64,000 nt of DNA from Euglena gracilis (GCA_039621445.1 CP154954.1:49455847-49519846), one strand, 5' to 3'; numbered from the stretch's first letter, positions 3,427 to 57,800 are shown. The notes: generated from the sequence alone by a model not told the origin. Translations and numbers: made by a program.

Positions 3427-3718
3427 AAGCGCAGGAGAATATCCAAAAGGATAAAACAAATGCTTTGAAACCAGTTGATCAAATGTTCATCTTTTCATTG
3501 TGTTCCAAGTTATGATTGCATTCTCAAATATACAGTGACGTTTCACCCGAATAATGTAAAAAACTGAAGCTCCTGCAACTCCTGATATCACCGCAAGGAA
3601 CTGATTGACTCAATACGATTTCCCATGTGTTATCCAGGAAGGACCAAATTGCAGATAAATACTCATCCACTAACCAAAGCAATCGACACAAAGAAATGGG
3701 CAGAATATTGTCCTGGCT
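3427..3718 (-). other. Non-canonical (euglenid-type) intron, 292 nt
   Basis: 5' end agcCAGgacaatattc pairs with 3' end ggatattctcCTGcgctt; no GT/AG; removal restores the conserved Trf4 motif. Confidence 0.85.
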
Positions 3719-3775
3719 GAGGGAAGTGTATGCCTGGTCGGTGTGGCTGTGGAACATCTGGAGCATATGGATGAC
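3719..3775 (-). CDS. TRF4: Trf4-like polymerase exon (VIHMLQMFHSHTDQAYTSL)
   Basis: CAG acceptor, phase 0, 57 nt; continues from ...YSISLM of the previous exon. Confidence 0.8.
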
Positions 3776-54800: not shown

Positions 54801-57800
54801 ATTGTTGATCACATTCGGATTTTTTGTCCTTTTTGTCTGTTTTTAGCCATTGTTGGCCATTGTGGATATCTGTGGATATTTTTGACTATTTTTGGGCAGT
54901 TCGGCCACTTTTGGTCATTTTCGGCCATTTTGGCAACCTTTAGCCACTTTTGGCCATTTTTGGCTTTTTCTGGCACTGAGCGTGGCTGAGTGTGACTGAG
55001 CATGAGGCGTGACTGGGAATGGCTGGGCGCAGGGAGGGGCAAAATATGCACCGTGCAGTTTTTGCAGTTTTTTGCAGTTTTTCACATTTTGGGTTTTTTG
55101 CAGTTTTTTTTCTGAAAAAAAACTGCACACGTGCAGTTTTTTGCAGTTTTTTTTATTTCAGTTTTGAGGAAACCTGAGGTGCTCATTTTTCGGTGTTCTG
55201 CGCCTTGTTACGCTGGATTATATTGTTAGAAGGGTGTTTCTCAAGAAAAAGTCTCTCTCAAAAAATCTCTTCGTGAGTTGTGTTGTCTACAGTAATCCCA
55301 CCAGTTGTCTTGCCCCCAACCGTTTTGCCAACTGCCTTGCCTCTCGACACAACAGAAATTGTTGTAGCCACCATTCCAAAAAGCAGATTGTTTCGGCGAC
55401 AACGCCACAATTTCTCCCCAACCAAAATCGCTCCATCTCCAACTTGTGCATGTGGTGACAGATGTCACGATGCTTATTTTGGCAGTCGTCATTTGCACAC
55501 TCCTGAGCAGATTCAACTAATTATTTTGGGATTCGGGGACTAAATCCAAAAACTGTTTTTTGTGTGCAAATTTTGGTTTAAGTTGGAGTTTTCGAGATTC
55601 GTGGAGACGCAAAGGAGCACGAGCTCCTGTAGAAGATTGGGCCTTGTCCCAAGCATTGTGGCCAAATATCACACAAGCCAAATGTTTCAAAGAAGTCATT
55701 CTTATTTGCAAGAAATTCCCAGACCATTTGGCAATCCCCTAAAGACAGTATTCAAAGTTTGTGATGCTTCTTGTAGATTTTTTTTAGTTTTTTAGATTTT
55801 TTGCATCGTGACATGGGTGAAGTTCATCAGGTGATGGACCGAAAGTTCCAAAACTGAACATCCCATGCAAGAATTAAAAGCATAGAAGCTTTCTGCATAT
55901 GGGTGTGTGCATTTTTTTCATTTTTAGTTGTTTGGCACCTCCGTGGGCATGGCCGTCACAAGCTTTGGTGCAGGAAAACCAGTGTGAACCAGCATCCAAA
56001 CCAAACACATAATTTTTGTTTCAGTGCATGAAAATCCAGGTACAGTGTACCTTGCAGGGATTTTTTTAAGTTTGGACCCCCGGGGGGGGGGGAGGGGGAG
56101 GGGTAGGGTAGGTGGGTCCGGCCGAGCCCCCCCCCCCCCCGGGGGGGCCGGAGGGGGGGGGGATATACTTTTCGGCGCCACAGGCGCCGAAAAAAATTCT
56201 ATTTTTAGCACTTTTCGCAATTTTTCGGCCATTTTTTGTGGTCCCCTGGGACCCCCTCCCCCCCCCCAAGGGGGTGGGTGGGTGGGGGGGACCCCCCCTC
56301 CCCCCCGGTCTTAAAAAACCCCTGGTACCTTGATTGATTGCTTCCATTTTTATTGTCATCAGCTCCAAAGCTGTGCAAAAGTTAGGTGAATTGGGGCGTT
56401 CTCATGTGATTACAATTTACTTTTTTTGCATATGCACACCATTTCAGCTTGTTTATTGTTATTTTTTGTTGATGTGCAGTTTTTTGCAGTTTTTTTTGCA
56501 GTTTTTTTTGCAGTTTTTTTTGCAGTTTTTTGCAGTTTTTTGCAGTTTTTTGCAGTGCAGTTTTTTGACCTGCCCGTGTGCAGTTTTTGCCCCCCCCCCC
56601 CTGCTGGGCGTGACTGGGCGTGACTGGGCGTGAATGGGTTTGGGATCCTGGCCCGTCAGCTGATTATCGCTGGCAAAACAAAGCGCATTTTATCTGCGGT
56701 GGTGTCCAGTGGCAGTTAGCTTTGGGGCCCCTGGTTCCGTCCCCCAAACCCAGTCAACGCTCAACGTCCCCTCCCAGCCATACCTCTTGGCCCCCAAGTC
56801 TCGCCCGCCACCGCTCCAGACGGCGAGAAGGGACACGGGCGCCGACCGCCAAAGGCGAAGAGTGCGAAGGCCACCGTGTGCCTGGACTACCTGAAGGGGA
56901 AGTGCACGCGAGAGCGGCGCGCACTTGACTCACCCCCCCCCCCTACCTCTCCGCCCTGGAGGGGTGAGTCCCAAAGATTACCGGCTTGTCAGTTCGGAAG
57001 ATCTCCGGTTGATCACGGTGCAAATGCCAATTTGTATCCACACCTGAACGCATTTCTCTCTTGGCCGCTGATGGTTTTGACCTTTTGGTGCCTCCGGGCT
57101 CAAGGCTGCCTCGTCCACCCAAATGTGCGGGCAAGGAGCGTTTTAAGACAATTCCGAAAGAATGTGTCGTTCTCAAATGCAACATGTGTTGTTGTTTTTC
57201 CCAACAAATATGGACCCTCTGCTGCATTCCAGGAATGCTGAACTTTTTTTTTTAACTGAACAATGTTTTTTAATTTTGTTTCGCTTCAAAAGGTTTGGTG
57301 ACAGCAGAGGTTGTTCTGTTTTTTAATATAAAAAAATTGAGGGCTTTTGTGCCACAGTCCTACAGATTGCCCTGTTGCTGATATTGGTAGGCACCTGGAG
57401 TGTGTATTTTTAGTTAAAAAATACTGCATTCATTTTCCAAAAAAAAAGCACCACAGACCTTCCGTCTTGTTTTTCTATTGTTGCCTACGCTTCGCCATTT
57501 TTTGAAGAGGATGGGGACAGTAGCATCTCCTTTTCTTGAGTTTGTCTGGCCAGCCTCAATGTCACTGCTACGTGTCTCTACCTCCCCCCCCCCCCTGGGG
57601 GAGCAACTGCCATGGCTGAGACCCTGCCAGCGTGCCACCCAAAAAAGATAATGACCATGAAAAATTCCCAATTTTGGTGCCGATTTTCCCCCAAAACCAA
57701 AAAATTGGTCAGTTTGTTGTCTTTGTTGCATTTTATTTGTCAACAAAATGTTTATTCTTTTGCAAGATGAAGAGGAGGGGTGGAACCGAAAATCCTCTCC

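Follow-up and report, generated by a model that had tools for sequence, protein, structure and literature searches.

The 64-kb stretch of Euglena gracilis nuclear DNA analysed here, referred to below as the window, carries the 3' part of an IP3 receptor/ryanodine receptor (IP3R/RyR)-like channel gene (36.5-44.5 kb, + strand) and seven inverted-repeat elements, M1 to M7, that begin with CAG and end with CTG. RNA joints show that introns with and without GT-AG borders coexist in this gene, and such a mixture within one gene is described as a euglenid signature (PMC3935182, PMC12501133). The initial annotation of this DNA had proposed that the non-canonical (NC) introns share the footprint of resident MITEs (miniature inverted-repeat transposable elements) with 8-bp target-site duplications (TSDs), and that such MITEs could generate introns. 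We find the observation confirmed and the interpretation partly supported; it sharpens a published hypothesis and opens no new category. As an overall explanation, insertion of a MITE with an 8-bp TSD to give a scar-free NC intron is the one that we favour, by a modest degree.

Euglenid NC introns follow the code 5'-N3CDG-/-CH'GN5-6 followed by a purine (R), together with a helix of ~12 bp, as defined genetically by knock-ins (Nomura et al. 2025, PMC12501133); the same report states that fully synthetic 50-bp introns built to the code splice in E. gracilis and that NC introns make up 71.8% of E. agilis introns. An origin of NC introns from MITEs was proposed in 2013 (Milanowski et al., PMC3935182), when by that account no euglenid transposable elements were known, and the proposal is repeated in the discussion of PMC12501133 and in a review that terms CAG/CTG 'TIR' (terminal inverted repeat) and the junction repeats 'TSD-like' (PMC11282704). 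In E. agilis ACOI 323 a newly gained intron, gapC intron 4, is bordered at its junctions by direct repeats of eight nucleotides, which the authors of that study read as a mark of double-strand-break repair (PMC4770533). The MITE origin, the 3/5-nt code and the 8-nt repeat at a gained intron are already in print; in the main texts of the largely open-access literature searched, we did not find the sum of 3+5 as an 8-bp TSD, a link to hAT transposons or a named resident MITE family.

Searches for element families, TSDs and transposase covered the window. RNA was mapped over 36450-56400 using the contig sets X15 and X16 and the raw RNA-seq runs X21 and X22; X15-X20 were taken as RNA by guess, and the spliced contigs back that guess. 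Statements on RNA joints rest on the 15 of 187 joints listed. Eight of these are clean skips in the IP3R-like gene, whose exon 41501-41605 matched IP3 receptor and ryanodine receptor chains along the stretch ICG...HNMWNYLYF (E 0.002). Seven of the eight skips are non-GT-AG, and five of the seven fit the strict code N3-CDG...CH'G-N5 followed by R; one more fits it by U.G wobble and one fits nothing. The skips are listed below with two further introns, predicted in the initial annotation and fitting the code in sequence, that lie outside the RNA-mapped range.

Intron 1, 3427-3718, - strand: predicted NC intron, AGC-CAG...CTG-CGCTT, then exon base G
Intron 2, 11415-11832, - strand: predicted NC intron, CCC-CAG...CTG-TTCGT, then A
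36533-38463, + strand: NC intron, joint 36532->38464, GCC-CGG...CCG-CCAGC, then G
Intron 3, 39926-40510, + strand: NC intron, joint 39925->40511 skipping 585 nt, GGC-CTG...CGG-AGCGC, then G; slidable by 5 (GGCCT repeat)
40947-41116, + strand: GT-AG intron, joint 40945->41116, 'GT..AG (cut +1)'
Intron 4, 41182-41500, + strand: NC intron, joint 41181->41501 skipping 319 nt, GGC-CAG...CTG-GCGGC, then A; not slidable
Intron 5, 41607-42632, + strand: NC intron, joint 41606->42633 skipping 1026 nt, GCC-CAG...CTG-CCGGC, then A; not slidable
42773-43072, + strand: skipped 300-nt segment, joint 42772->43073, 9-nt direct repeat GGGCCGGAC; neither code nor GT-AG in any register
43103-43675, + strand: NC intron, joint 43101->43675, GCC-CAG...CTG-CTGCC, then G; register k=1 of 0-3
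43847-44184, + strand: NC intron, joint 43844->44183, ACC-CGG...CCG-GCGCC, then G; register k=2 of 0-2

The boundaries that had been predicted for introns 3, 4 and 5 agree to the base with RNA contigs and reads, and intron 4 interrupts the channel motif between CF and ICG. The paired ends claimed for introns 1 to 5 were found in all five, with helices that begin at the CAG/CTG triplets; the CTG...CGG ends of intron 3 pair solely via U.G wobble. All nine introns folded pair inward from the triplets, at 8-13 of the first 13 positions, and the downstream exon begins with a purine at all of the code-fitting introns (6/6 of those verified by RNA, 8/8 with introns 1 and 2). With ends such as GG..GC and GC..GC the NC introns lack the spliceosomal pattern of GT/GC-AG removal and follow the helix-measured code. 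In spacers, CDG, helix, CHG and purine, the six RNA-verified and two predicted introns are like published euglenid NC introns (PMC12501133, PMC3935182), from which two cases depart: the CTG...CGG of intron 3 lies outside the combinations described as tested in PMC12501133, and the segment 42773-43072 fits no code.

The CAG...CTG elements, their relatives and the intron proposed for M5 are as follows, listed without strand unless one is given.

M1, 16878-17274, 397 bp: MITE, CAGG...CCTG, TSD CTCCCCTC/CTCCCCTC (8/8) at 16870-16877 and 17275-17282
M2, 25331-27258, 1928 bp: MITE-like, TIR CAGGGGTTTTCTT (13/14), flanks CTCCGCCG/CTCTGCCA (6/8)
M3, 52356-52789, 434 bp: MITE, TIR CAGGnATTTGCTTAAGG, TSD CCCTCAAG/CCCTCAAG (8/8)
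M4, 56055-56324, 270 bp: MITE, TSD GTACCTTG/GTACCTTG (8/8) at 56047-56054 and 56325-56332
M5, 48689-49104, + strand as putative intron: MITE-like, perfect 13-bp TIR CAGGGCGTCGCTT, flanks CCCCGAGC/CCCTGGGC (6/8)
48686-49109, + strand: putative NC intron of M5, AGC-CAG...CTG-CCCTG, then exon base G, a purine; helix 13/13
M6, 32141-32846, 706 bp: CAG...CTG element, TIR CAGGGGGGGGGAAA, 7-nt flush direct repeat AAATGGG
M7, 61344-62480, 1137 bp: CAG...CTG element, TIR CAGGGGGGGGGAAA, 7-nt flush direct repeat CTGACAG
6489-6767: old M4-family copy, termini decayed to CGGGG...CCCG, flanks matching at 5/8 or less
31699-31854, - strand: M5-family fragment, 72.6% identical over 157 nt, inverse in orientation to M5

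Perfect 8-bp TSDs are thus found in three of the seven elements, flanks matching at 6/8 in two and 7-nt flush repeats in two; the repeat of M6 reaches 8/8 only when the final G of CTG is counted into the TSD. M1-M4 start with CAGG and end with CCTG, as had been noted, and have imperfect TIRs of 12-16 nt; the 8-bp TSDs ascribed to all four are perfect in three, but the flanks of M2 agree at only 6/8. M1 and M3 are homologous along their whole length (73.6% over 417 nt, inverse orientation). M4 has relatives at 6515-6766 (72%) and as a nested piece within intron 5, with flanks that differ at each copy of the family; at 31923-31960 there is a further left end that resembles M5. Among 81 CAG...CTG pairs in the window that lie 60-4000 bp apart with a flank identity of at least 7/8, only two, M3 and M4, have a TIR identity of at least 11/12, and the MITE pattern is therefore not due to chance. 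When six of the MITEs were folded with 3-nt and 5-nt flanks, they paired inward from CAG/CTG over 10-17 positions, as the introns do. The hAT superfamily makes 8-bp TSDs, and hAT elements, including Ac/Ds, have CAG termini; we call the present elements 'hAT-like', a provisional label given solely for TSD length and terminal CAG.

An RNA joint spans M4. The joint 56046->56325 skips 278 nt, that is 270+8, with 8 slidable letters, and leaves one GTACCTTG, in keeping with the arithmetic of 3+5=8 in the initial annotation; it is supported by one contig each in X15 and X16, two reads in X21 and three reads in X22. Exact splicing and an exact empty site would leave identical joined sequences, and RNA alone cannot tell the two apart. 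Nearly every read carries non-window letters over 55228-56016, with 4-5 further differences per read, and the RNA at M4 comes from another copy that we estimate to be ~96-97% identical to the window. M4 has perfect TSDs, and its insertion therefore looks younger than this divergence between the copies. The expressed copy, a paralog or an allele, probably never carried M4, and the joint would then mark an empty site rather than splicing. That M4 itself is spliced as an intron we consider unlikely; read as an empty site, the joint would prove insertion with an 8-bp duplication.

The element for which splicing is best considered is M5, and we think that it probably is a spliced intron. One contig per run covers this region in pieces over 46.9-51.1 kb, at a depth of 55 in X15 and 38.3 in X16. 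Distances from the ends of the RNA pieces were calibrated as inclusive counts (position 42641, 9 from the end, gives the known start 42633; 56016, 31 from the end, gives the end 56046), and the variant at 49177, 69 from the end, places the beginning of the downstream piece at 49109. The intron predicted by the code, 48686-49109, slides 1 nt to the left (G=G), and its leftmost acceptor position is 49109, matching the start of the RNA piece. In the bin 48438-49103 the contig depth falls to 12.4 (X15) and 6.41 (X16), which leaves room for at most ~150 and ~111 nt of contig; M5 occupies 415 nt of the bin, and the contig therefore cannot include it. In the raw reads the depth is 17 (X21) and 15 (X22) at 49210 and averages 2.9 and 1.5 in the M5 bin. 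The 5' joint of M5 is not among the joints listed, which counts against M5 as an intron.

That M5 leaves by splicing, rather than being absent from the expressed DNA, we infer from its age and from the letters of the neighbouring exon. An explanation by coincidence or convergence would hold that the MITEs are ordinary hAT-like elements with the CAG/CTG ends common in transposons, that NC introns arose in other ways (double-strand-break repair, or conversion of conventional introns), that any stem-ended element will resemble an NC intron, that 3+5=8 is accidental, and that the RNA without M4 and without M5 comes from alleles or paralogs in which the elements were never inserted. At M4 the evidence is on the side of this account, since the reads over the joint derive from a diverged copy. 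At M5 it is otherwise. The flanks of M5 differ at 2/8 positions and it is ~73% identical to its relative, so that it seems far older than the ~1-3% difference between RNA contig and window; an insertion younger than the split between contig and window would be expected to have perfect TSDs. An allele without M5 would need a young insertion, which the decayed flanks fit poorly. Window-type letters were found at 49177 in 2/17 reads of X21 and 6/14 reads of X22, and a window-like allele is therefore expressed, yet depth over M5 is low. M5 appears to be old from the 6/8 flanks and from its 72.6% identity to 31699-31854, which extends across complex sequence, and an intact 13-bp helix despite this age is as expected under splicing selection for pairing.

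If a MITE of this kind were inserted by cut and paste it would create an 8-bp TSD, as is seen at M1, M3 and M4. In pre-mRNA its TIRs would form a helix starting at CAG:CUG, as computed by folding, and the NC machinery would measure off 3 nt ahead of CAG and 5 nt past CUG, which is as published and consistent with six junctions here, five of them to the strict code. Since 3+5=8, the cut would take the element plus exactly one copy of the TSD and restore the pre-insertion exon; this step has the arithmetic behind it, the product at M4 and the 3' boundary at M5. An exonic insertion would be born as a scar-free intron, provided that the sixth base of the TSD is a purine in transcript orientation. 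With ageing, as M5 and the negative result for older introns given below suggest, the TSD halves left within the intron would decay or gain nested insertions, as would the inner part of the element, and the CAG/CTG triplets and the helix would be kept through selection for splicing. Growth of an intron through nested insertion is visible in intron 5, which contains nested fragments of the M4 family as well as a (TA)n run of ~250 nt; its debris includes a right end ...CTTAAGAAAACCCTG at 41866, a left end CAGGGGTTTG... at 42003 and, over 42334-42503, a stretch resembling M4. Intron 5 was also considered as a MITE in itself, from its 5' CAGGGT to the internal right end at 41866, and this was rejected in favour of nested insertions, the flanks agreeing at 3/8 only. 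The older introns may have begun as MITEs in the same way, and the transposase would be of the hAT kind.

Several results weigh against this proposal, the first of them from the older introns. When the 8 nt before CDG were compared with the 8 nt after CHG in the eight NC introns of the window, 25/64 positions were identical, while the control of 56 mismatched left/right pairs averaged 3.0/8, and a scan of shifts from -8 to +8 gave 14-27 identities, with 25 at shift 0 and the maximum of 27 at shift -6. The excess identity at an 8-nt offset that the initial annotation had foreseen was thus not found in these introns. The counts of TSD-like identity that it gave for introns 1 to 5 (5, 0, 5, 3 and 3 of 8) are correct, but by the comparison of 25/64 with the control the 5/8 cases of introns 1 and 3 are at chance level. 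The 18 intron termini scored a mean of 5.1 against the TIRs of M1-M4, versus 5.0 for 1500 random C[AGT]GG sites; the top 5-9% of TIR scores was reached by the two ends of M5 only, and beyond CAGG the older NC introns have no MITE-like termini. (One intron-1 terminus was scored one base out of register, from which no effect is expected.) End-to-end homology to a MITE, also foreseen, was absent from all six NC introns that RNA verifies in the IP3R-like gene, and M5 is the one candidate for it. Other points come from the elements. At the would-be exon start, read in + orientation, the first base is a purine for M3, M6 and M7 and a pyrimidine for M1, M2 and M4, and at M6 and M7, with their 7-nt flush repeats, cutting at 3/5 nt would take one base too many. 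A Pfam search for transposase on 20 long open reading frames (ORFs) of the window, three of them inside M2, gave nothing. High RNA depth over M3 (1634-3850 in the X15 contigs, versus ~10-80 in neighbouring genes) indicates that members of the families are not always missing from RNA. The TSD geometry, the code-like ends and M5 speak for an intron-generating MITE system, and the older introns, with neither TSD excess nor terminal homology, do not.

Coincidence or convergence gains from these eight introns, and it has further points in its favour. Double-strand-break repair was what the finders of the 8-nt repeats at the gained gapC intron proposed (PMC4770533), and the segment 42773-43072 is flanked by a 9-nt repeat but lacks the CAG/CTG code, so that junction repeats have other origins too. 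All four RNA sets (X15, X16, X21, X22) skip this segment, whose last ~50 nt, together with the repeat, share homology with a second locus at 58307-58367; it may be a mobile element or an intron of a different kind, or else an allele with an insertion or deletion, 300 being a multiple of 3. Against such an account stand M5 and the published synthetic introns, in which the code alone suffices, so that an exonic MITE with such ends should splice (PMC12501133). On balance we regard coincidence or convergence as somewhat unlikely, though it is the more serious of the two alternatives.

The other alternative reverses the direction, with excised circular NC introns copied back into DNA and the MITEs as products rather than source. 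Excised NC introns have been reported as full-length circles, as stated in a review (PMC11282704), and MITE-family sequence is plentiful in RNA contigs, as the depth over M3 illustrates. A re-inserted intron would keep its old N3/N5, and the flanks of M1 and M3 are unrelated (CTCCCCTC vs CCCTCAAG or its complement); both are bounded, flush with CAG/CTG, by a perfect 8-bp duplication particular to that copy, which is the mark of cut-and-paste DNA transposition, and the flanks of the M4 family differ copy by copy. We consider this direction very improbable. The RNA contigs part from the window sequence ~38 nt inside the left end of M3, and members of the M3 family are plentiful in RNA, either within many transcripts or possibly as excised forms that are stable.

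Under the explanation by MITE insertion, NC splicing may be an RNA-level excision matched to one kind of transposon, with MITE families as a continuing source of the majority class of introns and M5 as a living example; we hold this broader view tentatively, with rather less confidence than the explanation itself. All exonic insertions would then be erased scar-free, because the cut offsets equal the 8-bp TSD. To a hypothesis so far without a named element the window adds resident MITE families whose ends and 8-bp footprint are the right ones, and the asymmetric 3/5-nt spacers would receive a simple quantitative reason, their sum being one TSD. The published 8-nt repeats at a gained intron would on this reading be explained as a TSD and not as a repair scar. 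If true, host RNA processing and transposon integration geometry in Euglena would fit base for base.

The elements resemble hAT MITEs in their 8-bp TSDs, short TIRs and CAG termini, with dispersed copies here at ~72-74% identity, and differ in that no hAT transposase or autonomous element was found in the window. Giroux et al. in 1994 reportedly described Ds acting as an intron in maize; unlike the present case, that splicing was imprecise and went via cryptic spliceosomal sites, with no TSD-matched code. The MITE-origin hypothesis as published (PMC3935182, PMC11282704, PMC12501133) shares with our results the inverted repeats at intron ends, the TSD-like junction repeats and a MITE-like insertion as source, whereas the passages that set it out name no resident element, TSD length or 3+5 sum, and the window has MITE families. 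Introners of Micromonas, Aureococcus and other protists, as reviewed in PMC11282704, are likewise non-autonomous, with TIR and TSD, and their insertion makes an intron whose removal the TSD aids; they are unlike the present system in that the spliceosome acts at GT/GC-AG borders derived partly from a 3-nt TSD, while the code in the window splits an 8-bp TSD 5+3 across the cuts. The MITE introns of Fritillaria borealis and Amoebophrya are similar in lacking GT-AG borders, in carrying TIRs and TSDs and in having flooded particular lineages, and differ in that a modified spliceosome is thought to act on them, whereas the excised euglenid intron is reported to be circular (PMC11282704).

No sign was found that M1-M4, M6 or M7 lie in coding exons: taking out the element and one TSD does not yield an ORF of unusual length. 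The longest ORFs that span the removal sites measure 59-419 aa, where the background has its median at 176 and its 95th percentile at 456. A Pfam scan of seven short exons flanking introns 1 and 2 likewise returned nothing. Two candidates were set aside. The sole metagenome match to the TIR pattern of M1-M4 (L001) was taken on reading to be a bacterial-looking coding contig and hence a chance match, and a cluster of palindromic repeats on TTTGCGCAAATGCGCGCA at 8177-10577, which gave many spurious TIR+TSD calls, is not a CAG...CTG element. Minisatellites with units of 9-11 nt (AAATTGCGGAA, AATGCGGAAAA, TTTTTTTGCA) were seen at 7165-7640, 32166-32830 and 61393-62443, that is within or beside M6 and M7 and adjoining the old copy of M4; arrays able to expand seem to be present inside these MITE families.

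In the IP3R-like gene, two fragmentary predicted proteins of other assemblies, relatives of its last exons (P0001, P0002), run uninterrupted through the point of intron 5, between YLFFMH and YLRCK, which suggests from sequence comparison that the position of intron 5 may be lineage-specific. The joint 40617->40824 has 4 intervening letters; its simplest reading is a GT-AG intron spanning 40617-40817 beside a 1-nt difference in a G-run. In the coding exon, RNA has one G fewer than the window in the G-run 40823-40828 and a 2-nt insertion, TG, after 40876; these differences are either allelic or small assembly errors of the window. The 15 letters that lie between the two sides of the joint 38519->39298 are absent from the window. 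Extreme depth was seen over 39114-39779 in RNA contigs (>30,000) and raw reads alike, and 'opposite strands' joints (at 39136-39153 and 39499-39531) link a G-run at 39.14 kb with a C-run at 39.5 kb. The pattern suggests either read artefacts of the homopolymer or fold-back type or a G/C-run repeat of very high abundance.

Upstream of M4, an RNA contig of X16 has 9 extra letters, TTTTTTTTC, immediately 5' of position 54451, which appear similar to the euglenid spliced leader at its 3' end. If this resemblance holds, 54451 would be the trans-splice acceptor of a + strand gene.

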